Source of the DNA: an uncultured delta proteobacterium | GTDB taxonomy: Bacteria; Desulfobacterota; Binatia; UBA9968 | Assembly: GCA_963816145.1 (NCBI GenBank) | Contig: CAWFJP010000004.1 | Location: 160,001 to 224,000 of the forward strand | Direction: 5' to 3' | DNA length: 64,000 nucleotides | In this document: positions 1 through 56,285 of the stretch, piece after piece | Numbering within the stretch: position 1 is the stretch's first letter | Layout of the letters: every line of letters begins with the position of its first letter | The notes under the pieces: generated by a model | Databases searched by the model: none | Seen by the model: the letters and a program-made list of their open reading frames with translations, nothing else | Told to the model about the DNA's origin: nothing | Made by a program: the position numbers and the translations under genes

Positions 1-1872
1 GGTCTCGGTCTTCGGGCCGGTGCCGACGCCTCGGGCGACAAAGAAGCCGGCGCTGAGCAAGGCGACGCGCACGGCGGTGGATGCCGAATAAGTGTAGAGT
101 TCGGCGGGCTTGGCCAAGCATCGGCGAAAGATTCGCGCAAAAATGTCACTGGTCCAAAGTGCCGCGTCGGTTTTGTACGAGAATGGATCATAAAAAATCA
201 GGTCGGGGAGCGCTGCCGCTTCGATGCAGTCGCGAAAGTCTCCTTTCAGAAGTTGCCATTGCAGCTGTTCCGAGAGGTGTCGCCAGCTGCCGTGGGAGAG
301 AATTTTGGACGGCGCGCTGTGGTGCAGGTGCGGGAAGCAGGCGGAATGTTTGGCGGCCAGGATGAGCGGATCGAGATCATGCTCGAAACTAATCAGCCGC
401 AGAGGTCGCAGCCTCGTGTCGTGGCTCTCGGCGAAGCATCGCTCGAAGCAGTAGAGCGCTGCCATGGCATTGGTGGCGGCGCCGAGGCCGACATCCCAGA
501 TCACCAACTCGACCGCGTTGTTGCCGGCTTCGATTAAGCGCGCGGCGAGGGCTGACTGCTCGATGTAAAGTTTGTTGGCTTCCTCGCTCGGTGCGCTCAC
601 CGAATGCATGATTTCACCGGAGCTGATTTGGCGAATGCTGTAGAACCCCTGCACCGAGCGGTGCAGTTCGTAATCGCCCAGGCGGGACGGCTGGGTTGTT
701 TTGTTTTTCTTGGGCGGACGAGTCGGATTTTCTTCATCGGCGCGTTTCAGTTCACCGCGCATTTGTTGGTAATAGGAGGCGAAGTCGCCGTCCAGGATTT
801 GCATGCGCATTTCCCGCATCAGGCGATGGTAAAACGCCAGGTTGTGTATGCCTAAGAGGTGCCAGCCGAGCACCTCATCCGATTTGATCAAATGGTGCAT
901 GTAGGCGCGCGAGTACTCTCGGCAGCATCGGCAATCGCAGCGAGCGTCTACCGGCTCTTCGACAAATTTATGCACGGTGCGGTGCAACTGTAGTCTGCCG
1001 TGGGAAGTAAAGGCGATGCCGCGTTGCGCCAGTTGCGTCGGGATTATGCAATCGAACATATCGACGCCGCGATGCACCGATTCGAGCAGATCGATGGGCG
1101 TGCCGACGCCCATCAGATAACGCGGCAGGTTGGCGGGCAGGTGCTCGGTGACCCATTCGGTGAGGTCGTAACGCTCGGCGTGGGTTTCACCGACTGCTAA
1201 GCCGCCGATGGCCAAGCCGTTGAAGGGCAGTAGGCGTAAAAACTCTGCGCTGGCTTTGCGCAAATCGTGCTGACAACCACCCTGGACGATACCGAACAGC
1301 GCCGCCGGCGCATCGCCATGAGCGCTGAGCGCGCGCACGGCCCAACGGTGCGTAAGTTCCATGGCCGCCTGGGCTTGGGCGTGAGCGGCGGTGGCAGGGA
1401 TGCATTGATCGAGCACCATCATGATATCGCTGCCGATGGTTTGCTGCATGGCGATGCTCGACTCGGGGGATAGGAGAAATGTTTTACCGTCGATGTAGCT
1501 TTTGAAGCTTGCTCCGGCTTCATTCATTTCTCTTGAATGGCGCAGCGAGAATATTTGAAATCCGCCTGAGTCGGTGAGAATCGGGCCCTCCCAGTTCATG
1601 AAACGATGAATGCCGCCAAATTTTTTGAAGACCTCGGCGCCCGGGCGCAGCAGCAAGTGATAGGTATTGGCGAGGAGCAGCCGCGCGCCGGTTTCTTTGA
1701 GGCTTTCCACCGTTTGCGCTTTGACCGTCGCTTGAGTGCCCACCGGCATGAAGATCGGCGTTTGGACCGCACCATGGAGTGTCTGAAAAGTTGCAGCGCG
1801 TGCTCGTGATCCGGGCGACTCGGCATCCAAGGTGAACGGCAATCGGTTATTACCGCGCGGTGAAATTGCCAT
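1..1872 (-). CDS. tgt: tRNA-guanine transglycosylase fused to C-terminal MnmD/MnmC-like SAM-dependent methyltransferase (3' end outside window)
   Basis: Manual translation from ATG at 1872 stays open to the window edge (624 codons), so it is absent from the ORF track. TGT motifs: TPIFMPVGT, LANTYHL, ILTDSGGFQ, GIVQGG, IGGLAVGE, PRYLMGVG, DMFDC, CDCRCC..H Zn site. After a linker (ENPTRPPKKNK) come MnmD-like motifs: EIMHS, WDVGLGAATN, LISFE, IFYDPFS..WT, LYTYSAS..VR.ALLSAGF.V..G.G.GPK. Confidence 0.9.
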   Translation of the reverse strand, partial: MAISPRGNNRLPFTLDAESPGSRARAATFQTLHGAVQTPIFMPVGTQATVKAQTVESLKETGARLLLANTYHLLLRPGAEVFKKFGGIHRFMNWEGPILTDSGGFQIFSLRHSREMNEAGASFKSYIDGKTFLLSPESSIAMQQTIGSDIMMVLDQCIPATAAHAQAQAAMELTHRWAVRALSAHGDAPAALFGIVQGGCQHDLRKASAEFLRLLPFNGLAIGGLAVGETHAERYDLTEWVTEHLPANLPRYLMGVGTPIDLLESVHRGVDMFDCIIPTQLAQRGIAFTSHGRLQLHRTVHKFVEEPVDARCDCRCCREYSRAYMHHLIKSDEVLGWHLLGIHNLAFYHRLMREMRMQILDGDFASYYQQMRGELKRADEENPTRPPKKNKTTQPSRLGDYELHRSVQGFYSIRQISSGEIMHSVSAPSEEANKLYIEQSALAARLIEAGNNAVELVIWDVGLGAATNAMAALYCFERCFAESHDTRLRPLRLISFEHDLDPLILAAKHSACFPHLHHSAPSKILSHGSWRHLSEQLQWQLLKGDFRDCIEAAALPDLIFYDPFSYKTDAALWTSDIFARIFRRCLAKPAELYTYSASTAVRVALLSAGFFVARGVGTGPKTET

Positions 1873-1885
1873 GACTCGGATTATC

Positions 1886-1991
1886 TCTCGCAAAGGCGCT
1901 AAGGCGTCAAGTTCGAAAAGGATGGATAATAAATATTTTGACTGGTTTTAATCTTCTTCTCCGGACTTAGCGTCCTTGCGCCTTTGCAAGA
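1886..1991. repeat. ~105-bp imperfect palindromic intergenic element (MITE/REP-like)
   Basis: Left arm tctcgcaaaggcgctaaggcgtcaagttcgaaaag pairs with the reverse complement of the right arm (tcttgcaaaggcgcaaggacgctaagtccggagaag) around an AT-rich loop. Confidence 0.6.
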
Positions 1992-2120: not shown

Positions 2121-3371
2121 ATGGCAAACGCGGAAATCGTTGCGATCGGTTCTGAATTACTGCTCGGTCAAATCGTCGATACCAACTCGGCGTGGATGGC
2201 GCAGCGGCTCACGGCGCTGGGCGTGAACCTCTATTTCAAATCGGTGGTGGGCGACAATCCGGCACGGATGAAAGAGGTCATCGGGCGCGCCGTGGAACGC
2301 GCTGATATCGTTATCACCAGCGGCGGCATCGGTCCGACCCAGGACGATCTGACCCGCGAGATCGTCGCCGAGGTGACCGGACGTAAATTGATCCAGGACG
2401 CCGGCATGCTCGAACAGGTCGAAGAACACTTTCGCAGGCGCGGCCGGCCCATGACGCCCAATAACTTGCGCCAGTCGTATCTGCCCGAGGGAGCGATCCC
2501 GGTGAAAAATCCCAACGGCACGGCGCCGTCATTTGTCGTTGAAGATCCACGGGCGGTGGTTTTCTCTCTACCGGGCGTGCCAGTGGAGATGAAGTGGCTT
2601 TTCGAAAACGAAGTCGAACCTTATCTCCGAAAGAAGTTCAATCTCGCCGAGGTGATTCACTACCGCGTGCTCAAGATCGTCGGCATCGGCGAAAGCGCGG
2701 TGGACGACAAGGTCGGCCATCTGATTGCCAATTCGAGCAATCCGACGGTCGGGGTGCTCGCCTTGCCCGGACAAGTCGACGTGCGCATCGCCGCCAAGGC
2801 GGGCGATCGCGCTGAAGCGATGAAGATGATTGCGCCGGTGGAAGCCGAGGTGCGCCAATTGCTCGGCAACGCGATCTTCGCCGCCGACGAAGAAACCATG
2901 GAGTTTGTCACCGGCAAATTGTTGCGCGACAAAAATCAAACCGTGGCGGCCTGCGAAGACCTGACCTGCGGCCAGTTGGCGGAGCGCTTGCAGACCGCCG
3001 GCAGTGAAAACTTCGGCGCCGGCTTTATCTGCAATAATGAAAACGCGCTGCGCTCACTGCTGAAAAACGCCCGCAGCGGCATCGATCTGGATGCCACTCT
3101 GAAAGATCCAAGCGCGCTTACCGACGAGATGGCCTGGGCGGCGCGCCAGCAGTCGGGCTGCGATTTCGGTTTGGCGCTTCACGCCATCGCCGATCCTGAC
3201 AGCAAGATTCAAAACCTCGCGCGCGGCCAAACCTACGTTTCGCTCACCGACGGCAAGAGATTTCTGCGCCGTGAAAGCACTAGCGCCGGCCGCGGCGCCT
3301 ACGACCGCTCGCGTATGACACTCAATGCCATTGATTTACTCCGGACCGCGCTGTTGGAAGGGATGAGCTGA
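2121..3371 (+). CDS. cinA: CinA-family protein (MoCF/COG1058 domain plus degenerate PncC-like domain)
   Basis: N-terminal AEIVAIGSELLLGQIVDTN, VGDN, GGIGPTQDDLT, NPNGTAP, LPGVP.EM; RBS aggag upstream. Confidence 0.9.
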   Translation: MANAEIVAIGSELLLGQIVDTNSAWMAQRLTALGVNLYFKSVVGDNPARMKEVIGRAVERADIVITSGGIGPTQDDLTREIVAEVTGRKLIQDAGMLEQVEEHFRRRGRPMTPNNLRQSYLPEGAIPVKNPNGTAPSFVVEDPRAVVFSLPGVPVEMKWLFENEVEPYLRKKFNLAEVIHYRVLKIVGIGESAVDDKVGHLIANSSNPTVGVLALPGQVDVRIAAKAGDRAEAMKMIAPVEAEVRQLLGNAIFAADEETMEFVTGKLLRDKNQTVAACEDLTCGQLAERLQTAGSENFGAGFICNNENALRSLLKNARSGIDLDATLKDPSALTDEMAWAARQQSGCDFGLALHAIADPDSKIQNLARGQTYVSLTDGKRFLRRESTSAGRGAYDRSRMTLNAIDLLRTALLEGMS

Positions 3372-3391
3372 AAGTTGCTTTGAGTTTCGGG

Positions 3392-5197
3392 TTACGAGTG
3401 TCGAGTCATGACTTTGGGCAAGAGTCTCTGCAGTTGGCCGAGCGGTTCTTCCAAGCTGCGAATCGCTTCGGTCCAGAAATCCGCTTCCTCGATATTTCGA
3501 CCGACGGTTTGGCGCACGACATTCTCCGCGCTCTCGCCGCCGGCGCGGCGGAGAAATTCTTCATACTTCGGGAGAAATGCATTGCCTTCGGCTTTGAACA
3601 TGGCGTAGAGGCCGCGGCTGAGCAGATAGCCGAAGGTGTAGGGAAAATTATAAAAGGTAATGCCGGTGATGTAGAAGTGCAGCTTGGAAGCCCAGAAGTA
3701 GGGATCTTCCCCGCCGGGCTCGAGTACCTCGCCGATGATCCGACGCTGGGTTGCCACCATCAATTCTTTCAAACGCGACACGCTGAGCGGACCATTGGCC
3801 CGCTCTTCGTAAAAGGACTTCTCGAATTCATAGCGTACCGGGATGTCCAACAAGTAGACCGCCCCATGGCCGACTTCGATGTCGAGGATGCGCGCTTTTT
3901 CACTGTCGCCGGCCGTATGATCGTCGAGAATGCCATTCATCAAGACATTTTCGCCAAAAGTCGACGCCGTTTCGGCCAGTGTCATTGGATATCCACGTGC
4001 GTAAGGGCGGACATCGCGCATCATGGCGCCGTGGTAGGCGTGACCGGATTCGTGCGCCAGCGTGAGCATATCGCCGAGGGATTCGTTGAAGGTCATGAAG
4101 ATGCGCGATTCCTTGCTCAGCATAGAGCTGGTGCAAAAGCCGCCGGGCCGTTTGCCCATGCGCGGCTCCCAATCGACCCATTTTTTGCCGATGATTTGGT
4201 CGTTGAAGAATTTCCCAAGCGCGGGATAGGCGCGAGAGAACGATGCCGCGACCGTCGATTGGGCTTTGTCCCAGGAAAGCTTGTTCGTATCCGGCAAGTC
4301 GAGGGGCGCGCCGAGATCGAACCAGGCGACGCTTTGGCGCGCCATGGATTGGGCTTTCAATCGAAGGATGCGCCGGGGTATCTCCAGGTTCGCCAGCAAA
4401 GCTTCAAACATGGCGTCGAGTGTCTTTCGGTTGATAGCGGCCTGGAACAGAGCGATGTCGAGAAAGTGATCGACGCCGCGGTGGCGGTTGAGCGTCAGCC
4501 GAGTGCCCGCGATGGCGTTCAAGGCAGCCGCGGCGGTGTCTTCAACGGTTTGCCAGGCGGCGTTGCCGCTGTCAAAGGCGGCTTGGCGCACATGCCGGTC
4601 GGGATGATCCATCAAAGAGCGGCGCTGCGACATGGGTAGGCGCGCGTGCCGGCCCTCGGGATAGACCATGTCGAATTCAAGTTTCGCCGAGATGGTGTCG
4701 TACAGCCTGCCCCAGCCTTGGATGCCGTCAACACCCAAGTCGGTGGCGAGGATTTCTTTTTCCGAGGTCATGGCGCGGCGCGCCTCTTCGCGCAAACGTG
4801 TCAGATAGTTCTGCGCCCCTGCTAATGTTGGTCGATTACAAAATTCCGCGAATATTTCGTCATCGCTAACTTTGAAGGCGCGCAACAGCTCGATGCGCAC
4901 TTTGGCGAGCTCGGCGCGAGTGCGGGTAAGTTCGGCCTCTTCTTTCTGAAAACTCTCGTTGCGCGCGTCCGAGGCCGCCAGGCAGCCGATGTATGAGCCG
5001 ATGTGCGACATGCGGCGTAAAAGATCTTCGTTTCGTAGCAGGATGCTTTCCCACGCTGCTACCGATTCGGAATTTAGAGACGGTAAATTGGCGGCGTTTG
5101 TTTGCAGCGCAGCGACATCGGCGCGAATGGCTTCTTTGAATTGAAGCATATCGGTGCCGTTAAATTGAAGAAAATAACTCGTCAGATCCCAGGTCAT
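3392..5197 (-). CDS. pepF: M3B oligoendopeptidase F
   Basis: MTWDL start, GKRPGGFC, TLAHESGHAYH zinc motif, AETASTF.E, FYNFPYTFGYL. Confidence 0.88.
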   Translation of the reverse strand: MTWDLTSYFLQFNGTDMLQFKEAIRADVAALQTNAANLPSLNSESVAAWESILLRNEDLLRRMSHIGSYIGCLAASDARNESFQKEEAELTRTRAELAKVRIELLRAFKVSDDEIFAEFCNRPTLAGAQNYLTRLREEARRAMTSEKEILATDLGVDGIQGWGRLYDTISAKLEFDMVYPEGRHARLPMSQRRSLMDHPDRHVRQAAFDSGNAAWQTVEDTAAAALNAIAGTRLTLNRHRGVDHFLDIALFQAAINRKTLDAMFEALLANLEIPRRILRLKAQSMARQSVAWFDLGAPLDLPDTNKLSWDKAQSTVAASFSRAYPALGKFFNDQIIGKKWVDWEPRMGKRPGGFCTSSMLSKESRIFMTFNESLGDMLTLAHESGHAYHGAMMRDVRPYARGYPMTLAETASTFGENVLMNGILDDHTAGDSEKARILDIEVGHGAVYLLDIPVRYEFEKSFYEERANGPLSVSRLKELMVATQRRIIGEVLEPGGEDPYFWASKLHFYITGITFYNFPYTFGYLLSRGLYAMFKAEGNAFLPKYEEFLRRAGGESAENVVRQTVGRNIEEADFWTEAIRSLEEPLGQLQRLLPKVMTRHS

Positions 5198-5272
5198 CGC
5201 GCCTCCGCGCAGTTTTGGGTTCCGAGTTGATGCGAAACCCGAAACCGATAACTCGAAACTTTAGTACACCGG

Positions 5273-6250
5273 TTAAATATCTACATTCGTGCCGACGTTC
5301 TGTTCGAGGGCCTTGCGATAGACCAGTTGCGCTGTCGCGACATCTTGAATGGCGATGCCGACGGATTTGTAGAGGGTGATCTCGCCGGGGCTGCTTCGGC
5401 CGGTTTTGCCGCCGGCGAGGACTTCGCCGATCTCGCCGTAGATGTCGGCTTCGCTGATCGACTTTTCATTGAGCGCGAGCAAGATATCACCGCACTCAGC
5501 CATGATCGCTTCGCGCGAGTCGACGACGACTTTGGCGCGTTTGAGTGTTGCGCCGTCGATCTCGCGCAGATCGGGACGGTGCGAGCCGACGGCGTTGATA
5601 TGGGCGCCGGGCTTGAGCCACTCCGGTTTGACGATCGGTTCTTTGGCGGTGGTCACCGTCACCAGCAGATCGCTGTCAGACACCGCGTCTTGCGGCGAAT
5701 TCACAACTTCGATGGGCACGCCGCACGGCTTTTCCAGTTCTTGTTTGATACGCAGCGCGCTTTTGCCGGATGGACTGTAGAGCTTGATGCGGCTGAGCTG
5801 GCGCACGCGCGTAAGCGCGAGAATATGGGCGCGCGCTTGCACGCCGGCGCCGAGAATTCCCAACACCGGCGCGTCGGGATTGGCCATTGTCCTGGTCGCC
5901 AGCGCCGAGGCGCAGGCGGTTCTGATCGCCGTGATATAACCGCCGTCCATGGCGGCGATTATCTTGCCGGTCTCGGCGCTGAATAACATGACCGTGGCGA
6001 GGATCGCCGGCAAATTCTGTTTGGGATTGTCTTGAAAATAAGTAACGACTTTCATGCCGAGGGCTTTGTCCTCGCTCAAATATCCCGGCATGCTGGTGAT
6101 CCGCCCTTGGATCTGCGGCAGTGGCACGACCAAGCGCACCGGCATCACCGCCTTGCCGGTGGAGTATTGGATATGCGCCTGTTCGAGGGCGGCGATCAGT
6201 TCGTCGAGGTCGATGAGACTCTGTACCTGCGACTCGGATAAGACCAGCAT
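5273..6250 (-). CDS. Ornithine cyclodeaminase/mu-crystallin family (possible AlaDH/ketimine reductase)
   Basis: MPGY..KVVT, ITAIRTA, GILGAGVQA, HINAVGS, LYKSVGIAIQD. Confidence 0.88.
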   Translation of the reverse strand: MLVLSESQVQSLIDLDELIAALEQAHIQYSTGKAVMPVRLVVPLPQIQGRITSMPGYLSEDKALGMKVVTYFQDNPKQNLPAILATVMLFSAETGKIIAAMDGGYITAIRTACASALATRTMANPDAPVLGILGAGVQARAHILALTRVRQLSRIKLYSPSGKSALRIKQELEKPCGVPIEVVNSPQDAVSDSDLLVTVTTAKEPIVKPEWLKPGAHINAVGSHRPDLREIDGATLKRAKVVVDSREAIMAECGDILLALNEKSISEADIYGEIGEVLAGGKTGRSSPGEITLYKSVGIAIQDVATAQLVYRKALEQNVGTNVDI

Positions 6251-32891: not shown

Positions 32892-34055
32892 ATGCGCGTG
32901 CTGTTTATTACCAAGCAGCAGTACATGGCGAAAGATCTTCTAGCGGATCGATTCGGCCGATTCTATGAAATCCCGCGGGTGCTGGGGCAATTGCGTCACG
33001 ACCTGCACGGCGTTTGTCTTCGTTATTGGCCTAGCAAAACCGGTGTCATGACTTCTGGGTCTCACGATTTTGTCAAATGGACGTCCTTTCCTTTGGGCAG
33101 AGACTTGCCGTTGGGATTTGTGCGACACTATGTTCGGTTGGTTAGAATCGCCCGGCGGATTAAACCTGATATCGTAGTTGGTGCTTCCGATTGCTTCCAC
33201 ATCATCATGGCCGCTCGTTTGGGGACCAAGTTGAGCATACCGTACGCTGTTGATCTGTATGACAACTTCGAAGCCTATCGCGCGACGCAGATCCCCGGGC
33301 TGAGACATTGGTATCGCTCCGCCGTCAGCAAAGCTGCTGCGGTGTCGGTCGTCTCCGAAACACTCTTGGCGAAAGTCGAGACCGAGTATCGTCCGACCGG
33401 CATCGTTCGGACGGTTACCAATGCGGTGGCGCCGGAGTTTTTTCATGCCGGTGACAAAGCTATGGCAAGACGCAACCTCGGACTTCCCGAATCCAGACTC
33501 TTAGTAGGTAGCGCGGGCTCATTGACGCGTAGCCGCGATATTGCAATTCTTTGTCGTGCCATTGAGCGCATTAAGAATATTAATCCACGGGTTTGTTTAG
33601 TACTTGCTGGTCCGACGGATATGAGCATGACGCCGCAAGCGTGTGGCAAGATGATTTATCTCGGTCAATTGCCCCAGAAACGAGTCGGGGATCTGTTTCG
33701 CGCTTTAGACGTTGGCATCGTTTGCAACAGGGACGACCAGTTCGGCCGCTACTGTTTCCCGCAAAAGCTCTTCGAGATGTTGGCGTGCAACCTGCCTGTC
33801 GTGGCGGCCGATGTCGGTGCCACGCACAACTTGTTGCGCGAATCTAAAACATGTCTCTACCACCCGACCAGCGAGGATTCCTTGGTTAACGCGATCCTGG
33901 CGCAATTTGGCGGGGGTTGTTTGCCCGCACTGCCGATACCGACATGGCAAGACCGTGGCCTTGAGTTTGGCGCGTTGTTGGAAGAGGCGATCCCGGCTTC
34001 AACAAAATTGTTGACCAGCTTCGAGGCAGACAAATTGGCGGCTCAGAGATTGTAA
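32892..34055 (+). CDS. GT4 glycosyltransferase
   Basis: TNAV, FPQKLFEMLACNLPVVAADV. Confidence 0.8.
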   Translation: MRVLFITKQQYMAKDLLADRFGRFYEIPRVLGQLRHDLHGVCLRYWPSKTGVMTSGSHDFVKWTSFPLGRDLPLGFVRHYVRLVRIARRIKPDIVVGASDCFHIIMAARLGTKLSIPYAVDLYDNFEAYRATQIPGLRHWYRSAVSKAAAVSVVSETLLAKVETEYRPTGIVRTVTNAVAPEFFHAGDKAMARRNLGLPESRLLVGSAGSLTRSRDIAILCRAIERIKNINPRVCLVLAGPTDMSMTPQACGKMIYLGQLPQKRVGDLFRALDVGIVCNRDDQFGRYCFPQKLFEMLACNLPVVAADVGATHNLLRESKTCLYHPTSEDSLVNAILAQFGGGCLPALPIPTWQDRGLEFGALLEEAIPASTKLLTSFEADKLAAQRL

Positions 34056-34111
34056 ATGTCCTCGAAATCGATTCGTGAATATTAGGCAATCAAGTATCGC
34101 GAGCGTAGATT

Positions 34112-34900
34112 ATGATGCTTCTCATTTCCGTGTTTATCCTCGGCACCATCGTCGGTAGTTTCCTAAACGTCTGCATTGGCCGGATTCCCAATGAAGAGTC
34201 GGTAGTGTTTCCGCCTTCTCATTGCCCCAAGTGCAAGGCTGCCATCACGTTTTACGACAACTTCCCGTTGCTCAGTTATTTGTGGTTACGTGGGAAGTGT
34301 CGGGCCTGCCACGAGGCCATTTCGCCGCGCTATTTCCTTGTCGAGTTGCTCACGGGATTGGTGGCATTGGCGCTCTATTCCCGCTTCGGACTGAGTTACA
34401 CTTTTGTCGTCAGTTTTGTTTTTGCCGCGGCCTTGATCGTTATTTCGTTTATCGATCTCGATGTTCGCATCGTACCGGACGTGATCAGCCTGCCGGGGAT
34501 CATCGTCGGTTTAGTGTTTTCGGTCATTGGCTATTTTGTCTTTACCGATGCCTTCGAAATTATCCCGACCCCGCTAAGCTCGCTCATCGGGATCCTTGTC
34601 GGTGGCGGGTTTTTGCTGGCGACGGCCTGGATATACGAGAAAGTTACCGGTGTGGATGGCATGGGCGGTGGCGACATTAAGCTGTTGGCGATGATCGGTG
34701 CGTTTCTCGGTTGGCCTTCGATTCCCGTTACGCTTTTCATTGCGTCGGTGTTGGGTTCGGTGATCGGTGTCGGCTTGATGGTGGCCACCGGTGCCGGGCG
34801 CAGGCTGGCTTTGCCTTTCGCCCCGTTTCTATGCGCTGGTGCGCTGATTTATCTTTTCTACGGTGGCATTTTGATTCAATATTATTTGCCTAACTCTTAG
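34112..34900 (+). CDS. pilD: Prepilin peptidase/N-methyltransferase
   Basis: GSFLNVCI.RIP, SHCPKC, GKCRAC, FIDLD, GMGGGDIKL, PFAPFL. Confidence 0.93.
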   Translation: MMLLISVFILGTIVGSFLNVCIGRIPNEESVVFPPSHCPKCKAAITFYDNFPLLSYLWLRGKCRACHEAISPRYFLVELLTGLVALALYSRFGLSYTFVVSFVFAAALIVISFIDLDVRIVPDVISLPGIIVGLVFSVIGYFVFTDAFEIIPTPLSSLIGILVGGGFLLATAWIYEKVTGVDGMGGGDIKLLAMIGAFLGWPSIPVTLFIASVLGSVIGVGLMVATGAGRRLALPFAPFLCAGALIYLFYGGILIQYYLPNS

Positions 34901-35140
34901 TGCCGACTGTTTACTGGGGCCAAATCTCGTCATAAGTCCGATTTTTGGTAGGATATCGTGTCGCTCAATTTTCTAGGCTGGTCTAAATAGCTCCCCATTA
35001 ATCCCTCGATGTCACGGCTGCTCTCGATGTCAGCTCTTCGGGCCTTGGTATGCTTCTTGTTAGATAAAACTCGCAGCGGTTTATAAGTCTACAGGGGCTG
35101 AATTGGTGTCGATCTGGGGAGTGGAGACCGTTAGCTAGAC

Positions 35141-35623
35141 ATGAGACTAGAGCGCGCAGCGAAGAGGTTTTTCGTTCAATCCGGTTTTACACTATTGGAG
35201 CTGCTTGCCGGGTGCGCTCTATTCGGCATTCTTACAGCGATTGCGGTACCGAGCTTTACTGCGGTCCAACCCTCACTTCGTCTCAATGGTGCAGCGAGAC
35301 AGGCATATGGACGGTTGATGTGGGCACGGGCGCAAGCGGTTGATCAGAATAACCAGTTCATCGTTTCTTTGGCTGATAATCACACTTTATCCATTCTGGA
35401 TGATAACAATGGTAACGGCAGCGCAGATGTTGGGGAAACGGTGACCACAGTAGATATCCAACTTGCGTACCCAGATGTGACAATCACTAAAGGTTTGGCG
35501 GACCCTAACCCGACGTTCTTGGGAAGAGGCACGACTCTTGGGACTACGAGTTTCACCGTGTCTAACTCGGCTGGGTCGCGGACGATTACCGTCAATATTA
35601 CTGGCGTGATCAAAATTAACTAG
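35141..35623 (+). CDS. FimT/FimU-like minor pilin (set 1)
   Basis: GFTLLEL class III signal, AR.QAV, C-terminal TG.IK. Confidence 0.82.
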   Translation: MRLERAAKRFFVQSGFTLLELLAGCALFGILTAIAVPSFTAVQPSLRLNGAARQAYGRLMWARAQAVDQNNQFIVSLADNHTLSILDDNNGNGSADVGETVTTVDIQLAYPDVTITKGLADPNPTFLGRGTTLGTTSFTVSNSAGSRTITVNITGVIKIN

Positions 35624-35644
35624 CGGTTATAGATTTTATTAACG

Positions 35645-36016
35645 ATGAAGCGTTTGCGAGCGAATGTTGGATTTACCTTGATGGAGGTGTTGGTAGCCCT
35701 GCTGCTGCTAACGCTGGGGATGCTCGGCGTGGCGAATCTTACGATTGGAGTCATCAAGGGGAATTCCTATAGCAAGAATGTAACCACGGCGACTGTTGTG
35801 GCGCGGCAACAAATCGAGGAGGCTATTCGACTGGGATATTCCACTGCCGGTAATCTGGCCGGCACATCGACGATAGCGATGGGTGGCAAGAGCTTTACGC
35901 GAACGACCACCGTTGCCAACGCGACCCCCTCGGCAAATATGAAAACCGTTACCGTCGCAGTGGCGTGGAATCCGGGGAATTATTCTGTGAGTCTCAACAC
36001 TACGCTTTCGCAATAG
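35645..36016 (+). CDS. PilV-like minor pilin (set 1)
   Basis: GFTLMEVLVAL, KTVTVAVAW. Confidence 0.82.
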   Translation: MKRLRANVGFTLMEVLVALLLLTLGMLGVANLTIGVIKGNSYSKNVTTATVVARQQIEEAIRLGYSTAGNLAGTSTIAMGGKSFTRTTTVANATPSANMKTVTVAVAWNPGNYSVSLNTTLSQ

Positions 36017-36018
36017 CA

Positions 36019-36648
36019 ATGGTTTACATGGGATTTAAAAACAACCAATTCCAGGACGGGTTCTCCTTGATGGAATTGGTTATCGCGATCGCCATTGGGA
36101 TGGTGATCATGGGGGCGGTCGCGGGCACATTTATGACGCAGACACGGTTCTATAACGCCCAAGAGCAAGTAAATGAAATGCAACAAAATGCTAGAGCCGC
36201 GATCGATCTGATTTCTCGTGAGATTAAGATGGCCGGCTATAAACCAACTGGCGATGCGATTACAGGTGTGAGCTACAGCACTACTGAGCTTAGAATCAGA
36301 TCGAATAATAACGGGTATCTTGCGGTCGCGAACGGCGGCGATACGACCATCAACGACAGCTCGGACGAACATTTGGTGTACACGTTTGATGCGGCGAACA
36401 ACCAAATCAAACGAGCGTATGGCGTGGTGGGTGCAACCCCTCAAGTCGTCGCAAGCAATATTACAGCCTTTACGTTTAGCTACTTGGATTCGAGCGGAGC
36501 TGCAACAACCACGGCAGCAAACATTCGACAAATAAGCCTCAGCATAACCGCTCGAACGGCAAAGCCGGATCCAAATTTAAGCACCAATAACGGCTACCGA
36601 ACCTACACCGTATCGACAGTTATCACACCGCCGAATCTAGGACTCTGA
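36019..36648 (+). CDS. PilW-like minor pilin (set 1)
   Basis: GFSLMELVIA, MQQNARAA.D.ISREIKMAGY. Confidence 0.82.
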   Translation: MVYMGFKNNQFQDGFSLMELVIAIAIGMVIMGAVAGTFMTQTRFYNAQEQVNEMQQNARAAIDLISREIKMAGYKPTGDAITGVSYSTTELRIRSNNNGYLAVANGGDTTINDSSDEHLVYTFDAANNQIKRAYGVVGATPQVVASNITAFTFSYLDSSGAATTTAANIRQISLSITARTAKPDPNLSTNNGYRTYTVSTVITPPNLGL

Positions 36649-36665
36649 ATAAGGAGAAACATTCT

Positions 36666-37969
36666 ATGAGAGCTATGCGGATTAGTCGCTTTTGTCCCTG
36701 TGCGCGAGTGTTGTCGAGCCAGGACGGATTCCTGTTGGTGGCGGCATTGGTGTTATTGGCGACGTTGACAATGCTTGGGACTACTGCCTATTTGCTCTCG
36801 TCGACGGACATAAAAGTCGGTGGAAGTTTCAAGACCTCGCAAGAAAGTTTAGCCGTAGCCCAGGCTGGTGCGGAGAGAGGTCGGGAAGTGTTGCGACAAA
36901 TCAATGGAAACCAAACCATCGCCGCCGACCCAACCACCTTTAATTCAGAACTTGTCTACTACCAAAATGTAGCCTTAACGAGTGGAACGATTGGCAGTTA
37001 TAGTTATACGGTCATGCTGAGTAATGATTTGCGGGATGCAGAGCCTACAGCCGATAGTAACAACAAAGTTTTGCTGACTTCCACGGCAACGGGACCGAAT
37101 AATACAAAGGCGATGGTGGAAATAGGCGTGTCTTTACCGCCACCACCGAGTGGATCACCGATAAACTTTCCGACCAACCCCGGCGCGATTACTTTGCTTG
37201 GGAACAGCGCCAGTTTTATCGGTGGTAACAGTAATGCGAAAACATTGAATGGCGACGATCAGTGTGGGGCGTCGCCACCTCTTCCGGTGGTCGCCGTCAG
37301 TGCGGCTGGCAGTTTGGCCGGTGTCAAAACTTCGATCACCGGTACCAAGCCGGCTACTTACCATACCAAAGTCAACGGCGTTAGTGTCGATGCGACTACG
37401 AATATCAACGATATCGCCAAATCCATAACGGCTGGGCAAATGACCAGTGCCGGTTACGATCTGAGCAGCGCGACTTCACAAACAGTCTGGTCGGCGCAAT
37501 CCAGGCCTTGCCTCAGGCTACGACCGTTGCGGGAGGTTCGTCGAGTTCCGGTATTGCCGGCGGTATTGGAACGGCGGCAAGTCAGAAGATTGTCGTTGTC
37601 GACGGCGACCTCACCTTGAGTGGAGGGGCAAGCGGATTTGGGATTTTGGTCGTCAAGGGTACGCTGACTTTTAGCGGCAATATCAACTACACCGGAATTA
37701 TCATGGTTGTCGGCGACGGTGTGATGGTACGGAATGGTGGTGGCAATGGTACGATTAGCGGCGCAGTCTGGGTCGCCAACACATCGGGGCCCGATGGTAA
37801 TCCCGGTACGGCCGACGATGCGATGGGCGCCGCGGTATTGAACACGTCGGGCGGCGGCGCTTCAAACATCCAGTATTGTTCGTCAGCGATTGCTAATGCA
37901 CTTTCCTTGACGGCGACACCACCAACATATGACCCGTTGCTTGTAAAATCATACCGGCAGGTCATGTAA
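36666..37969 (+). CDS. PilX-like minor pilin with long Gly-rich C-terminal domain (frameshift near 37480)
   Basis: GFLLVAAL (no E5), AQAGAE; second part VDGDLTLSG..G.GILVV.G.L, YCS. Confidence 0.75.
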
Positions 37970-38034
37970 TCGAAAATGGCGCCTCTCCTACGGTGATTGT
38001 CATCGGACAGTGGGGATTGTCCACGAGAGTGGGT

Positions 38035-38649
38035 TTAAGGATAGGCTGCTTTTAAATAGCGATCGATCGCTTTCCGGAGCGTCGTTAACGCAGCCAGCTC
38101 TTCCTTGTGGGCATCGGCCTGATTCAACTTCTGAACCTTACTTATGAAGGATTCTATATCAGCGTCTAGTGCGTGCACTTCATGTTTTGGCAAATCATTG
38201 AGGCTGCCAAAGCGTTTTTGTAACTCACCGTATTCGTTTAGTATCTCTTCATTTTTGGGCAGAGGCTCGCTGGTGGCAGATTCGGTTTTCTGGGAAACCG
38301 TTTGTCCTGCTTGTTTTTGATCTGTTAGAAGTTTCGACTCAACGGATGCGACACCGGTCGGTGTCTGCTGTCCGGCTGTCTTGGTCCTTTCAGCCTCGGT
38401 CGTATGAGTTGGCAGTGGCAGTATTCGATCGGATTGCTCGATCTTGTCCACGAACGATCTGTCAATGCCGAAAATCCCCCCGTAAGTATCGAACAAAATT
38501 TGGGCGCCCGCTTGCCAGTAACGATTTGTTATGTACTCGTTGCCATTTTTTAATTTAATCACATAAGCGGCGTTGGCGTTTCTTATAAAGCCCATGCAGG
38601 CCATCATTAGAAATCCGATAGCTGTTTTCTTCATCTTCATGGGTTCCAA
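38035..38649 (-). CDS. Secreted hypothetical protein
   Basis: Signal peptide (MKKTAIG...ANA-A), IKLKNG..Y..W N-terminal domain, helical C-terminus. Confidence 0.65.
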   Translation of the reverse strand: MEPMKMKKTAIGFLMMACMGFIRNANAAYVIKLKNGNEYITNRYWQAGAQILFDTYGGIFGIDRSFVDKIEQSDRILPLPTHTTEAERTKTAGQQTPTGVASVESKLLTDQKQAGQTVSQKTESATSEPLPKNEEILNEYGELQKRFGSLNDLPKHEVHALDADIESFISKVQKLNQADAHKEELAALTTLRKAIDRYLKAAYP

Positions 38650-39054
38650 CTGGATTGTTTTTGATTATACCATTTCTTGGCGTCGGCGGTATATTTTTTC
38701 GGCTTTGGTTGTCGTGGAAGGCACACCTAGGCCGCCTCGTTCCTGGACCCTGCATGACCATTACATAGCGTGGCGTTGCGGAACTTCCATCAAGTTAAAA
38801 AGCAAAAAAGAACAAGTGGTTAGCAAGACTCAGGCAGCTGATCAGGCAATATATAAGCGCTGCTGACAGAGGTTGACATCCGCGATACTGTCGTAGCAAC
38901 ATCAATCTTCCATATTAACAGCAACGCGAATATGTCAGGGTCATGAGTTGGGGTGCCGGCGCGGTGTTGACGAAAGCATGTTGCGCAGCGACATGGGGAT
39001 GCAGGGAAGTTTGAGTTTGTAGGCAGTGTCAGCTTGATAAGAGCGAAGATGGAT

Positions 39055-39086
39055 GAACAGACCGATCCTCTTGGCTCGGTCTGTTC
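39055..39086 (-). terminator. Hairpin downstream of tadG-like gene
   Basis: gaacagaccga-N10-tcggtctgttc 11-bp stem about 40 bp after the stop codon. Confidence 0.5.
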
Positions 39087-39127
39087 CCGGCAATCAGATT
39101 TGCGTAGATCGAAGGCGAGTGTTGCGG

Positions 39128-40684
39128 CTAGAGTGTCAGTCGGAGTTTCAAGATAGCCGCAATTTCATTGAAGATAACTTGGAGTTGTGCTTGGACATCG
39201 CCATTAAGATCAACGGTATATAATTTTCCCTTCTGGTGATTCGAATTAAATGCGGGTTTCCCGGCGCCAGTGAGATCACTATGCGGATCCTGATCGGGAG
39301 TGGTATAAACGGCGTTACAACCCCCTGACTGCTGGTCAGTACTGACATCCTCGATCACATCTTGGTCGTTGGTAATCGCTGCCAAGAGGCATCGCGCGTT
39401 GGCGTCGAGCCTGGCAGTAGCGTCGGCATTAGTCCCTGGCCCTATTGCGATGGCAAAAATGATGGCGTTTCTTCCTCCTAGTTCTTTGATCTGACGCGCC
39501 TCTTCCCTGGCAGCATTGCGAGCCGCCTGCATCTGGTGCAGATAGAGTGAATTGGGAGTTCCCGAGCCTGACGTAGTCTTGCCGCATCCATCGCTATTAT
39601 CGATCGTTGACGCACCGAAGTGCTTTTCGCAATTCGTGTTTAGGTTAAAACGATCCAATCCGTCTGATACCGCCGCGCTTGTGGAGTTACCTCTTTTGAC
39701 AAAAAAACAACCGTTGCCATCGCTCCACGGGGGGTTGCCAAGCGGACTGCCGGTAAGAGGATCGGTTTGGCATGCCGCGATGCTGTCAAGTCGGAGAGCG
39801 GTGGGTTGCCCGTCTGTAACCAAAAGGACTACTTTGCGTGTTGCAGTTCGTGCAGGGTCATTGAAAGCATTGGCGATCTGCGTCTTTCCTGTCCGGAGAC
39901 CTTCCATCGTGTTGGTCGTACCGCTCAGTCCTAGGCCATTGACGGCGGCCACAATATTACTAATCGTGCTTCCCATGACCTTGTCAGGCACGCAGACATT
40001 GCCCGTGAATTCGTTTGAACCGCCCGTGCCACACCCTCGTTTACCAAAGGCAGTCATTCCGAGTCGATCGTCCGCGGTAAAGTTTTCACCTAAAAAACCG
40101 CTCCCGGTACATCCCTGGCCTGTCAGGGCGCATTTCAAAGCGTTTAACTTCGTTCTTCCCGCGCCATCGGTTTCACCCATAGAGCCGGATCGATCAAGCA
40201 CCAACATGAGGTCAACCGGCCGTTCAGGACCAGCCTCGGCGCGAGCGACGACATTGATAGTTGAATAGTCTCCCGGCACGATCCAGCCGAGAAAGCGTAA
40301 AAACGTGGTGGACACCGGCTCAGTCGCGGTCACTCTCACCCCCTTTACCGGCGGTCCGCCGGAGACGGGAAGATCGAAGAATTCGACCTCGGCAGTCATT
40401 GGCGCGCCATTGGTTGTCGTGCAAGCGTTGCCGCTCATGACCACAGGCGCGCCGTTCATCGTCATCGAATCACAGGCGGCGCGGACCGCGTCGTTTATCA
40501 ATGCCGCCTGGCCTTTGACGACCTTGGCAGCGGCGAGAGACGCGGCATCGACGAGCCGGTTAATCCGTGCTTTTTCCAGATAGGATCGACCAAAATCAAG
40601 GGCAAACCCGATAAAGGTACCGAGTAATGCGAAGGAAACCGTGAACCATACAATGAACGAACCCCTTTGATTTAACTTGCGCAT
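39128..40684 (-). CDS. TadG-like pseudopilin with von Willebrand A domain
   Basis: QRGSF signal, ALDFGR...DAASLAAA Tad domain; MIDAS DRSGSM, TNT..GL, LVTDGQP, FAIAIG; many paired Cys. Confidence 0.85.
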   Translation of the reverse strand: MRKLNQRGSFIVWFTVSFALLGTFIGFALDFGRSYLEKARINRLVDAASLAAAKVVKGQAALINDAVRAACDSMTMNGAPVVMSGNACTTTNGAPMTAEVEFFDLPVSGGPPVKGVRVTATEPVSTTFLRFLGWIVPGDYSTINVVARAEAGPERPVDLMLVLDRSGSMGETDGAGRTKLNALKCALTGQGCTGSGFLGENFTADDRLGMTAFGKRGCGTGGSNEFTGNVCVPDKVMGSTISNIVAAVNGLGLSGTTNTMEGLRTGKTQIANAFNDPARTATRKVVLLVTDGQPTALRLDSIAACQTDPLTGSPLGNPPWSDGNGCFFVKRGNSTSAAVSDGLDRFNLNTNCEKHFGASTIDNSDGCGKTTSGSGTPNSLYLHQMQAARNAAREEARQIKELGGRNAIIFAIAIGPGTNADATARLDANARCLLAAITNDQDVIEDVSTDQQSGGCNAVYTTPDQDPHSDLTGAGKPAFNSNHQKGKLYTVDLNGDVQAQLQVIFNEIAAILKLRLTL

Positions 40685-40701
40685 TTTAGGGTCTCCCGCG
40701 T

Positions 40702-41307
40702 TTAATTCGCGCTAACATTCGTAAAGATCGTTCGATCATATAAGTCTGTATTTATACCTTTGCCGACGAAGGTGATTATATTCGGAGCATAGTTGTAAAA
40801 AACCTCCAATACATGGAAAGTTTGGCCATCTTTCACATTCTGGATGCCTGGCAGGATACTCTGAGATATCGGAGTTCCGTTGGGTGGATTGGGTAGACCC
40901 AGTTTGCTCTGTTTATTGAGGTTTCCCCTGGTAACTTGACCACCCGCCTTAGTGTCCACGATATAATTGCAAGGGTCGGGTGGGCATGGAATATTGTTTC
41001 GAACCACTTTGGTGTAAATAACTCTCCACTGCGCCTGATTGGCCGTAGTAAGCGTTGGCGCCGCGGCTTTGATGATGGCGTCGAGTATATCGTTGTCGGG
41101 GCCGGTCTTATCGATAGGAAGCTTTCCACCCCGGGAGGCGAGGTTGGCGCCTTCTCGGGTCGTGTGAGTTAGAGTCAAATAGGTACTAATTACCGATCCA
41201 ACTTCAACAGCGCCATAGGTCAACATTACCAACAAAGGCGCGATTAGCGCGATCTCGATAAGCGCCTGCCCTTTATTCGAGCCTAGGATTGTGCGTAACG
41301 ATCTCAC
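40702..41307 (-). CDS. TadE/TadF-like pseudopilin
   Basis: KGQALIE.ALIAPLL, TREGA. Confidence 0.82.
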   Translation of the reverse strand: MRSLRTILGSNKGQALIEIALIAPLLVMLTYGAVEVGSVISTYLTLTHTTREGANLASRGGKLPIDKTGPDNDILDAIIKAAAPTLTTANQAQWRVIYTKVVRNNIPCPPDPCNYIVDTKAGGQVTRGNLNKQSKLGLPNPPNGTPISQSILPGIQNVKDGQTFHVLEVFYNYAPNIITFVGKGINTDLYDRTIFTNVSAN

Positions 41308-41318
41308 AATAAGAACTC

Positions 41319-41819
41319 CTAACTTGTCGGATAGGGTTCGTTTTTCCAGGTGGTGCTCAATTGCAACGGCACCCCACCCGAGGGGAAATATCGCGAAAAA
41401 AACGGCATGAGCGTCGGTTTTGATAACTTAACCGTGACCAGTACGGTTTGCTCCGATCCCCCGCCCGGCGCCGTACAAGTCCCATCAAGACAGGTAAACG
41501 TAAAATTGGGGCCGAGAGGGGGACACTGGACCCCGGCGGCGATCACATTGGCGCAGAATACGTCATGAATCACTTGATCACGGGGAAGCGGATCTCCTTG
41601 CTTGTTCATTTCGGTTCTACCCGTAATCATATATCGGCCCGCCGTGCGTAGCGCATGTTGCAAAGTGACCTTGGCATAGAGAAGATGAGAAAATTCCACG
41701 ATCGCCATGAAAAGAGCGAAAAATATCAAGAAGCTAAATGTGAATTCGACAAGCGCTTGGCCCGTTCGGCAATCCAGGGGTTTCATTAATCTGAATATCA
41801 GCGATCGAACTTCGGCCAT
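41319..41819 (-). CDS. TadE-like pseudopilin
   Basis: GQALVEF, HALRTAGRY, C-terminal KNEPY; GGAGG RBS before ATG 41819. Confidence 0.82.
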   Translation of the reverse strand: MAEVRSLIFRLMKPLDCRTGQALVEFTFSFLIFFALFMAIVEFSHLLYAKVTLQHALRTAGRYMITGRTEMNKQGDPLPRDQVIHDVFCANVIAAGVQCPPLGPNFTFTCLDGTCTAPGGGSEQTVLVTVKLSKPTLMPFFSRYFPSGGVPLQLSTTWKNEPYPTS

Positions 41820-41893
41820 CGATCCTCCACTAATTGGCATGCAAAAGGACATTGCGAAATCCAGAGTGTACAAAATCTAGACAATTTTTTATA

Positions 41894-41909
41894 TGCAATA
41901 TCCAAACCA
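41894..41909 (-). promoter_or_regulatory. Putative sigma54 promoter of tad cassette
   Basis: Minus strand TGGTTTGGATATTGCA (GG-N10-GC), ~75 bp upstream of tadE. Confidence 0.55.
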
Positions 41910-42145
41910 TTATAATGGTCGCCTTAGGCGTCCATCAAGTCCTTAATTATTGAAAAAACCCGCGCAAGCCAACGACATTGATGACGAGACTGACAAGGGC
42001 ATGGGACAAATATGTCAGCGGAAGTTTTATCAATCCGGGTGCTCAGTGGGCATCGTTCTCAGGCATTTCGCCGGAAATATTCCGCTTCGGATTGTCTCGT
42101 AACAGAATTCTCCACGAATATACATTTTTATCCGCGTCTTTCTGA

Positions 42146-42161
42146 TGGCCCGTTCCTTGCT
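42146..42161 (+). promoter_or_regulatory. Putative sigma54 promoter
   Basis: TGGCCCGTTCCTTGCT (GG-N10-GC), ~65 bp upstream of ATG 42228. Confidence 0.55.
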
Positions 42162-42227
42162 CACACGATTAGACAAGCGGGGCCAAAACTAACGGAGCGA
42201 AAACTTTTGGAAAGAAACGGAAAACTC

Positions 42228-42452
42228 ATGAATGGGTCCTCTTGTTGCGCAAAGTGGATTCTCGTCTTATTAGTTGTCAACACAATGGCGTTTGTTGAAG
42301 GCTTTTGCCTTGCGTCTCTAGGCCGCGGCATAGTGACTGTGGGGCTCACAATAACAAGCGTGTTAGCCGTCGTTGCGATGAGTCGCTTGGGGCTCTTAAA
42401 TACAACTAGCGGCGGCAAAAACGCCCTCGCGGGTGAAGAACCTCAGCATTAA
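42228..42452 (+). CDS. Small two-TM hypothetical protein
   Basis: 74 aa with two hydrophobic stretches, downstream of a sigma54-like site; no family recognised. Confidence 0.4.
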   Translation: MNGSSCCAKWILVLLVVNTMAFVEGFCLASLGRGIVTVGLTITSVLAVVAMSRLGLLNTTSGGKNALAGEEPQH

Positions 42453-42769
42453 CGGAAAATTTCCGATGATTTCAGCCCATGATCCGTCCGTCTCTGGGTT
42501 TATCGAAAGACGAGCGACATCGTTAGATCATCGTGTGCTCGGGAAATCACGATCTGAAATCGAATCTGTGTAATTCCCCCGTGTTACTGAGACCGGGGGG
42601 ATTACATTTAAAAGTCCGTGCGGGCCTAATTTTACCCACTCTGCATGATTAGAAGGAATATTTCGGCCAATAATCGGGCGGTGCAACTTTAAATATTACG
42701 TTTTTTCATTCACCGTCGATTTGCAGTGAGGGCTAAGTGCTCCTCCCAGTACCCCTATCTGGATATCCG

Positions 42770-43208: not shown

Positions 43209-43336
43209 CCTTCCACCCTGACATAATTACGTTGCATAAGACCCTGTCAGATTCACTTTGCTACAACAATTGACATCCGCGATACTTGACAGCCTTTCTG
43301 GTTCGGCAGTATGGTGCGCCAGTCTTGGAGGGGGTC

Positions 43337-43786: not shown

Positions 43787-43787
43787 G

Positions 43788-53987: not shown

Positions 53988-54049
53988 GCCTAACCGACAA
54001 GGTTCAGCGGCGGCGCAACGAGCGCCGGCCGCTGAACCCATTATTAGCT
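53988..54049. repeat. attC-like 62-bp imperfect palindrome
   Basis: GCCTAAC ... GGTTCAGCGGCGGCGC-aacga-GCGCCGGCCGCTGAACC ... ATTAGCT; the minus strand ends in a perfect GTTAGGC (GTTRRRY); one extrahelical base in the stem. Confidence 0.55.
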
Positions 54050-54077
54050 GACGGCTTTTTCGCCGTTTCTGCTACGA

Positions 54078-56285
<2,208 letters not shown>

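Follow-up and report, generated by a model that had tools for sequence, protein, structure and literature searches.

The left edge of the window analysed here, a stretch of 64,000 nucleotides from an uncultured delta proteobacterium (G000:C4:160001-224000), cuts through a gene in which a tRNA-guanine transglycosylase (TGT) continues in the same frame into a methyltransferase of the MnmC2/MnmD type. The locus raises the question of whether the two domains make up a genuine bifunctional enzyme and, if they do, which base the second domain would methylate. The original prediction for this window described one continuous frame running off the window and gave no strand; we recovered that frame whole, on the minus strand. 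In the window it occupies positions 1..1872 (minus strand), with an ATG start at 1872 that gives a protein of 685 amino acids and with its 3' end cut by the left edge. Completed from its own assembly, the open reading frame lies at L001:1315-3393 (minus strand), and the part beyond the window, the last 61 codons and the stop codon (L001:1315-1500), reaches 186 nt past the left edge. An alternative TTG start at position 1893 would give 692 amino acids (window 1..1893, minus strand). A protein search found one database cluster representative identical to the 685-residue product at 685 of 685 positions (100%). All coordinates of motifs and features given here were verified by translation.

Pfam assigned residues 30-380 to the TGT family (PF01702, E 2.8e-142, 474.5 bits against a cut-off of 26.3) and residues 535-630 to Methyltransf_30 (PF05430, E 1.5e-14, 54.4 bits against a gathering score of 22). 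The N-terminal half also exceeded the cut-off of the NCBIfam Tgt equivalog model TIGR00430 (441.2 bits, cut-off 306.75); the C-terminal half stayed below that of the MnmC2 equivalog-domain model NF033855 (74.2 bits, cut-off 136). By PF01702, TIGR00430 and the Zymomonas mobilis TGT structures, which matched it over the full length with E ~1e-105, the TGT domain (754..1806, minus strand) is a paralog of the bacterial, preQ1-using type, preQ1 being 7-aminomethyl-7-deazaguanine. The METHYLTRANSFERASE half of the fusion, its methyltransferase, forms a distinct clade that we name A1. This MnmC2-like domain, dependent on S-adenosylmethionine (SAM), fills positions 1..651 (minus strand) and is incomplete in the window, its whole extent being L001:1318-2151. 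An MnmD/MnmC2-like SAM domain had been predicted at this place, and both the PF05430 match and the closest structure, Aquifex MnmC2, bear this out at a score below the NF033855 cut-off. A basic, proline-rich linker of about 35 residues, ELKRADEENPTRPPKKNKTTQPSRLGDYELHRSV, at 652..753 (minus strand), separates the region that Pfam assigns to TGT from the onset of the A1 profile match. The linker too had been foreseen, at about 690-750; its presence stood and its position had to be corrected.

We scanned one genome per species for relatives of the C-terminal domain and obtained at least 589 loci; many or most of the genomes compared in this study are metagenome-assembled genomes (MAGs). Among the 80 best loci, 71 had a single frame of at least 600 amino acids with the motifs of both domains. 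The remaining nine were interrupted by contig ends (eight loci) or by a masked run of N (L029), which accounts for the lone apparent split. A stop codon or frameshift between the domains, an outcome that the original prediction had considered, was not seen in these loci, and the single frame in 71 of 80 rules out an assembly or frameshift artefact. Both Pfam families were present in 120 of 120 clusters among the matches listed (68-100% identity, 631-745 aa). In an alignment of 46 full-length fused proteins, with identity down to 45%, the TGT half did not vary at its catalytic, zinc and pocket positions (Val233 excepted, where it varied hardly at all), nor did the methyltransferase half in the motif I pattern D.G.G...N or at the motif IV aspartate. 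From this invariance of the active sites we conclude that both domains of the fusion are intact enzymes kept by purifying selection.

The original prediction had described a complete TGT with the TDSGG, DMFDC, DQC and GGLAVGE motifs and a zinc site, and we found all of them by translation and by alignment to Z. mobilis TGT. The TDSGG/DSGGF segment (1558..1572, minus strand) carries the equivalent of Z. mobilis Asp102, while Tyr106 is replaced by Phe; residues D101, S102, G103 and G104 (fusion numbering) were invariant in the 46 fused proteins. The DCII segment of the DMFDC motif (1042..1053, minus strand) has its Asp codon, the equivalent of Asp280, at 1051-1053 and has Ile in place of Val282. 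We take the Asp280 equivalent to be the catalytic nucleophile, and the roles of Asp102 and the other Z. mobilis residues are likewise assumed. The zinc site CxCxxC...H (844..939, minus strand) consists of CDCRCC at 922-939 and a His at 844-846, with the ligands C312, C314, C317 and H343 (fusion numbering) invariant. The preQ1-type pocket was kept as well: Asp156, Cys158, Gln203, the GGLAVGE segment (Gly229-Glu235) and Met260 all have their counterparts in the alignment. In Z. mobilis numbering, the positions invariant throughout the 46 fused TGTs were Asp102, Asp156, Cys158, Gln203, the GGLA.GE segment, Met260, Asp280 and the zinc ligands; Val233 was nearly invariant.

Besides this conserved core, the fused TGTs showed a set of substitutions of their own. 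A comparison of 74 fused with 19 canonical TGTs found G49A and H127Y in 100% of the fused proteins, E157Q in 89%, V282I in 96%, R286Q in 97%, R289Q in 81% and N290R in 97%. The sequence QLAQR (1021..1035, minus strand) is thus a signature of the fused clade, where canonical enzymes have R-x-(A/G)-R-N (Arg286...Arg289-Asn290 in Z. mobilis). Arg286 and Arg289 were present in 19 of 19 canonical TGTs, and none of 14 distant fused proteins had Arg at either position. Unfused TGTs fetched from another phylum, including the single TGTs of genomes with only a standalone A1, kept both arginines in 15 of 16 cases, and the remaining one had Lys286. In the Z. mobilis TGT-RNA complex these two arginines presumably bind the tRNA backbone. 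According to the part of PMC5395182 that was accessible, Arg286 lines a cavity joining two pockets in an inhibitor-induced twisted TGT dimer. Taken with that partial description, the signature suggests that the base pocket is unchanged and that the region near the RNA-backbone pocket has been remodelled.

The phylogeny set the fused TGTs apart in the same way. The tree, which held 26 fused and 23 canonical domains, placed all the fused ones on one side of a branch of length 1.34 with support of 100 by the Shimodaira-Hasegawa-like approximate likelihood ratio test (SH-aLRT). The fused rows were 26 of the 74 (every third, together with the sequence of the window, L111 and L112) and the canonical rows were all 23. 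As with the other trees described here, it was built by a quick method on a subset of rows and carries SH-aLRT support only.

For the A1 domain the closest solved structure was Aquifex aeolicus MnmC2/DUF752 (3VYW, E 5.8e-26), with the MnmC domain of E. coli as the next best. Its SAM-binding motif I reads DVGLGAATN (469..495, minus strand), compared to D-V-G-F-G-L-G-Y-N in classical MnmC2/MnmD, and D460, G462, G464 and N468 (fusion numbering) were invariant in the 46 fused proteins. The Asp of motif IV, DPF (181..189, minus strand), is the counterpart of Asp193 in the Aquifex protein and of Asp178 in E. coli MnmC, and was also invariant (D562). This Asp is described as catalytic in N-methyltransferases in the accessible portion of PMC3527978, which also gives the roles of the MnmC2 motifs. 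Two further positions had changed, with Asp in place of Aquifex Asn200 and Ala in place of Glu202.

With the C-terminal 278 residues as query, HMMER found 1860 hits in the whole library at E <= 1e-3, of which 237 reached E <= 1e-30. Besides fused proteins they included standalone proteins of 271-300 aa, whose proper N-termini show them to be genuine. Compared to classical MnmD-like proteins, the hallmarks of A1 were GLGAAxNA instead of GFGLGYN, GDF instead of GDAR, and SGExMHS instead of DGSxT...YHS, to which the clade adds its own conserved C-terminal extension of about 60 aa, W-L-x-R-W-x-R-S...H-P-Q-F. On the NCBIfam MnmC2 model A1 proteins scored 71-74 bits (standalone 71.4), compared to 120-250 bits for classical proteins. 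A tree separated A1 (35 fused and 14 standalone domains) from 12 classical MnmD-like proteins and three MnmC domains with SH-aLRT 98 on a branch of 0.64; the fused rows were 20 of the 74, 14 distant database proteins and one domain from L154. Within A1 the fused and standalone forms were interleaved, and the well-supported branches force at least four changes of state. Profile searches and a phylogeny had been named as checks by the original prediction; they confirmed PF01702 and PF05430 in one protein and resolved the fused TGTs as one clade and A1 as another. Ten A1 proteins of intermediate length were also looked at: five were TGT fusions, truncated or in one case full, four had PF05430 only, and one (P0212, 504 aa) had an N-terminal AMIN domain (PF11741) before an A1-type methyltransferase, a joining that may be a gene-calling read-through.

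Is the fused TGT the housekeeping enzyme of its host? In the genome of the window a second, canonical tgt (373 aa) lies on another contig in a queA-tgt-yajC-secD operon, and queF and queA are both present. The fused and canonical Tgt of this genome are 48% identical over 350 aa without gaps. The presence of a canonical tgt beside the fusion rules out a housekeeping tgt that has merely acquired a domain. In the same class, where we called a fusion if PF05430 and PF01702 matches adjoined in one frame of 680-810 aa, 16 of the 121 genomes sampled had it. A second TGT of canonical size was found in 14 of these 16, and the two exceptions were genomes 89% complete. Among the 105 genomes of the class lacking the fusion, 102 (including the unpublished genome G233) had a TGT match and only one had two full copies; match counts per genome are not to be equated with copy numbers. 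All of five further fusion genomes, reached through their loci, had a second TGT.

The phylum of G271 gave the same picture. The fusion was present in 48 of 201 genomes, with 47 frames of 664-798 aa and the copy of G271 cut by a contig end, and at least two TGT matches occurred in 48 of 48. The original prediction had asked whether fusion genomes also carry a canonical tgt, and overall a further TGT match was indeed present in 67 of the 69 fusion genomes examined. Among the matches listed, a separate TGT frame of 373-500 aa could be assigned for 25 of the 48, and in G448, G452 and G460 the fused and canonical TGTs lay on one contig. Fused-type TGT was never seen without A1, and A1 also occurs alone; hence the TGT paralog seems to need the methyltransferase.

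Some other TGT genes in these samples deserve mention. The canonical-type tgt of G270 (G270:C14:24338-25380; L141, L143, L144) is split into four pieces by the in-frame stops TGA, TAG and TAA, and is either a pseudogene or the product of long-read assembly errors. Many fusion-free genomes of the G271 phylum (G396, G400, G519, G441 and others) had two unfused TGTs. The second TGT of G396 (L171, G396:C5:152000-153800), with GGMSVGE and P-T-R-Y-A-R-S-A-T, looks like a third kind of TGT paralog.

We also observed that the fused TGTs differ from one another by short branches in the TGT tree, though the canonical TGTs of their hosts are far apart (branch 1.37). This difference points to horizontal transfer of the fusion gene, with which its patchy distribution agrees; in the sample of its own class the fusion was missing even from a genome of the same genus (G157). 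The argument is based on the branch lengths of fused versus canonical TGTs, and organism labels of NCBI MAG records were not used in it. Near-identical fusion genes do stand in MAG records (L020-L099) labelled Akkermansia muciniphila, Enterobacteriaceae, Erysipelotrichia and Alphaproteobacteria, labels that are implausible and no guide to taxonomy.

What would such an enzyme do? We consider it quite plausible, if a little short of probable, that the fusion places preQ1 in RNA, with position 34 of tRNA as the likeliest site, and that the aminomethyl group is then N-methylated. The protein would be a bifunctional RNA-modifying enzyme working beside the housekeeping queuosine pathway without replacing it. 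Its N-terminal TGT paralog would exchange guanine for preQ1, most likely at G34 of tRNAs with GUN anticodons, possibly with an altered recognition of the RNA backbone. The tethered A1 domain, using SAM, would methylate the exocyclic aminomethyl nitrogen of the inserted base, leaving N-methyl-preQ1 in RNA. The lost arginines suggest altered RNA handling, for hand-over to the second domain or for a different target.

The choice of preQ1 as the inserted base follows from the pocket, which is intact, tight and of preQ1 type, and which also makes methylation before insertion less likely. MnmC2 methylates the C5-aminomethyl group of a wobble base with tRNA as its substrate, as stated in the portion of PMC3527978 available to us, and this together with the unenlarged pocket argues for insertion followed by methylation. 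The C7-aminomethyl group of preQ1 is chemically analogous to the 5-aminomethyluridine (nm5U) on which MnmC2 acts, at the same wobble position. By this analogy, a dedicated TGT would be best explained if the methyl group went to the aminomethyl group of the base that this TGT has just put in place. That the target is position 34 and the methyl acceptor the preQ1 amine is what we infer rather than observe.

Several points weigh against this proposal. We infer the product, the acceptor and the RNA target from sequence, and the characterised relatives of the C-terminal domain, Aquifex MnmC2 and E. coli MnmC, methylate 5-aminomethyl(-2-thio)uridine, nm5(s2)U, as reported in the accessible part of PMC3527978. 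In the genome of the window the fusion carries the sole PF05430 domain found by profile search; MnmG is present (910 bits), and the profile searches gave no MnmC1 above cut-off and no MnmM, so the fused domain could be the only route of this genome to 5-methylaminomethyl-2-thiouridine (mnm5s2U). The same was true of the remaining 15 fusion genomes in the class and of three in an Opitutales-like sample, which had no extra PF05430 match except A1-like or marginal ones. QueA of the genome of the window would compete for preQ1-tRNA; for the QueA-independent end product of the original prediction the data give support in neither direction, the genome keeping both queA and queF. Standalone A1 occurred with a single TGT in 12 of 17 genomes, and all eight TGTs fetched from such genomes were canonical, so A1 needs no dedicated TGT. 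No neighbour of the fusion was conserved (the best cluster reached 10 of 81 loci), and no preQ1 or other riboswitch was found near the gene in 12 loci (142 kb), the sole Rfam match being a tRNA in L074; neither result links the gene to the queuosine regulon. QueF did not discriminate: 44 of the 48 fusion genomes had it, as did 179 of all 201. Finally, some co-occurrences could be binning artefacts, given the many MAGs; in G448, G452 and G460, however, one contig carries both the fused and the canonical TGT.

Part of this evidence favours an enzyme equivalent to MnmD, which would convert nm5(s2)U34 to mnm5(s2)U34 on tRNAs of the Lys/Glu/Gln type, while the TGT half would make ordinary preQ1-34 on Asp, Asn, His and Tyr tRNAs and no new nucleoside would arise. 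The closest solved and characterised relative is after all Aquifex MnmC2, the catalytic D-x-F and the SAM motifs are retained, PF05430 is matched above its cut-off, the genome of the window offers MnmG and none of the alternative enzymes searched for, and standalone A1 is found with a single canonical TGT. Still, we regard this explanation as unlikely. It leaves unexplained why the fusion should invariably draw on a second, diverged TGT paralog with a signature of its own, and why that paralog is never seen without A1. The low scores of A1 on the MnmC2 model contrast with those of classical proteins in the same genomes, and A1 was found alongside complete MnmC enzymes: the fusion stands beside a bifunctional MnmC in G448 (192 bits for its MnmC2 domain, cut-off 136; 214 bits for MnmC1, cut-off 174), and in G426 and G487 such an MnmC accompanies standalone A1 (MnmC2 domains of 222 and 250 bits). 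Because A1 co-occurs with bona fide bifunctional MnmC in these three genomes, it is not simply the MnmD of the cell. Also, G581, G425 and G560 combine the fusion with MnmD-like proteins of 120-130 bits, so that, of the separate mnmC, mnmD or mnmM genes that the original prediction proposed to look for, mnmC or mnmD-like ones turned up in several fusion genomes and none of the three in the genome of the window. Standalone A1 accompanied the fusion in 16 of 48 fusion genomes of the G271 phylum, and in G195 and G213 of the class of the window; and a patchy gene (16 of 121 genomes) that looks transferred fits an accessory role better than a housekeeping one. For the same reasons, the fused TGT being an extra paralog and A1 occurring beside true MnmC, two unrelated wobble enzymes simply joined, which the original prediction had kept as its alternative, has become less likely.

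The chemistry could also be that of 7-deazaguanines in another order or on another target, with A1 acting on free preQ1 or on the amine of epoxyqueuosine or queuosine (oQ/Q) and the TGT paralog handling the base concerned, or with the paralog, its Arg286 and Arg289 lost, acting on another RNA loop with U-G-U, on rRNA, mRNA or DNA. The gene does behave as a horizontally mobile accessory, and the available part of PMC5699537 reports that bacterial TGT modifies mRNA in vitro, and DNA if deoxyuracils replace thymines. However, the tight preQ1 pocket (Cys158, Val233, Leu231 and Glu235 kept) is not enlarged for a bulkier base, there was no PADLOC or DpdA-type match and no DNA-metabolism or defence gene among the neighbours, and MnmC2-type enzymes act on tRNA (PMC3527978, in its accessible part). 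In G581 (L154) truA (3148-3936, plus strand) ends 22 nt before the TGT-A1 fusion (3958-5979, plus strand), a weak hint at tRNA. On balance we judge these variants decidedly unlikely.

One half of the protein might instead be catalytically idle, a tRNA-binding or dimerisation module, for example in a heterodimer with canonical Tgt. Precedents for such an arrangement exist: in the bacterial TGT homodimer one of the subunits serves mainly to hold the tRNA, and eukaryotic TGT includes a paralog that is not catalytic. The invariance of the catalytic, pocket, zinc, SAM and DPF residues in 46 sequences down to 45% identity speaks against it, as the single frame in 71 of 80 independent assemblies speaks against the related possibility of a frame created by faulty assembly or annotation; we hold both to be very improbable.

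Insertion of preQ1 followed by methylation also has a wider form. The A1 clade as a whole could define an N-methyl-preQ1 modification of RNA, an end product that blocks QueA, made in trans where canonical Tgt has placed preQ1, or in cis through a dedicated, mobile TGT paralog, and the loss of Arg286 and Arg289 may then redirect the paralog to different RNAs. The fusion would in that case be a self-contained, transferable cassette for recoding or protecting wobble positions. We find this wider form possible and rather doubtful.

As far as is known, preQ1 in RNA always goes on to queuosine or one of its derivatives, and we know of no natural methyl-preQ1 other than the mdPreQ1 of phage DNA. If the proposal is right, N-methylated preQ1 would add a nucleoside to those known from natural RNA and mark a fork in one of the best-studied tRNA modification pathways. 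In one phylum roughly a quarter of the sampled genomes had the fusion, which also occurs in Opitutaceae-like and Binatia/Desulfobacterota-like lineages. It offers a lead for the unfused A1 proteins and, through its two lost arginines, a natural experiment on RNA recognition by TGT. If the enzyme were an MnmD instead, its annotation would be corrected and an unusual coupling of two wobble pathways revealed.

The fusion gene sits between surE and cinA. On its upstream side, inside the window, are the divergent cinA-like gene (2121..3371, plus strand; Pfam MoCF_biosynth, CinA_KH and CinA), an M3 oligoendopeptidase F-like gene (3392-5197, minus strand) and an ornithine cyclodeaminase/mu-crystallin gene (5273-6250, minus strand); downstream, outside the window, are surE and a gene for an S4-domain (Hsp15-like) protein. 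The surE and cinA neighbours were common to only six of 81 loci. No PADLOC family matched at E <= 0.01, and we reject a DpdA-like DNA-modification system on this result and on the neighbours, which are surE, the S4-domain gene, cinA and the peptidase gene. The G+C content of the window is 0.50-0.52 over about 10 kb (34001-44000), peaks at 0.645 at 54001-56000 and is about 0.57 elsewhere; the deviant segments are possibly foreign.

Standalone A1 genes had varied surroundings. On contig G581:C1 a standalone A1 paralog (L154:10972-11808, plus strand) lies 5 kb downstream of the fusion and groups as sister to the A1 domain of that fusion (SH-aLRT 99). Six open reading frames there, five between the fusion and the standalone A1 and one after it, had no Pfam match. 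The standalone A1 of G271 adjoins prs, pth and ychF, and no tgt is adjacent. Three genes away, on contig G271:C61, a CxxCxxCC/YkgJ-type protein is encoded (L106:1174-1650, minus strand; PF03692, E 5.9e-07). The phage protein DpdM is described as a DUF3109 protein with YkgJ as its E. coli homolog in the accessible part of PMC10516641; the nearness of the two genes in G271 may be coincidence.

How does the fusion compare with what has been described? Both domain families are known, and databases currently name such proteins 'queuine tRNA-ribosyltransferase', 'tRNA guanosine(34) transglycosylase Tgt' or 'MnmC family methyltransferase'. A literature search returned no report of a TGT-MnmC2 fusion or of methyl-preQ1 in RNA; within what was searched there is likewise no description of the TGT paralog clade and its signature, of A1 as a clade, or of the obligatory pairing between the two.

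With bacterial Tgt of the Z. mobilis/E. coli type the fused TGT shares the pair of catalytic aspartates, the preQ1 pocket and the zinc site, and it scores above the equivalog cut-off. It differs in being a second paralog outside the queA-tgt-yajC operon, in carrying a C-terminal methyltransferase, and in having Ile282 and Arg290 and lacking Arg286 and Arg289. Like MnmC2/MnmD (Aquifex DUF752, 3VYW; the E. coli MnmC N-terminal domain, 3AWI), the methyltransferase half is a class I SAM methyltransferase whose motif I ends in Asn, with Glu in motif II, Asp in motif III and D-x-F in motif IV, and it too would act on an exocyclic aminomethyl group of a wobble base. Unlike these proteins, A1 is a separate clade below the MnmC2 cut-off with altered hallmarks and a C-terminal extension. 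E. coli MnmC, as described in the accessible part of PMC3527978, resembles the fusion in having two catalytic domains on one chain directed at the same nucleotide 34; sequential action would be a further likeness if the fusion works as we propose. The partner domains differ: in MnmC it is the flavin adenine dinucleotide (FAD)-dependent oxidase MnmC1, in the fusion a TGT.

The nearest likeness to the proposed activity comes from phages, whose methyl-preQ1 the original prediction had already brought in as a precedent. Methyl-preQ1 (mdPreQ1) exists in phage DNA as the product of DpdA2 and DpdM, a transglycosylase inserting preQ1 and N-methylation following, as set out in the available portion of PMC10516641. 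The precedent therefore stands for the chemistry and fails for homology. DpdM is there a DUF3109/YkgJ-like metal-binding protein with a CxxxCxxCC motif, whereas the fusion domain is Rossmann and MnmC2-like, and Pfam found only PF01702 and PF05430 in the fusion (first 631 aa scanned), which rules out homology to DpdM. DpdA, for its part, is a distant relative of TGT. The phage pair acts on DNA and consists of two separate proteins, while the fusion brings its transglycosylase and its methyltransferase together on one chain.

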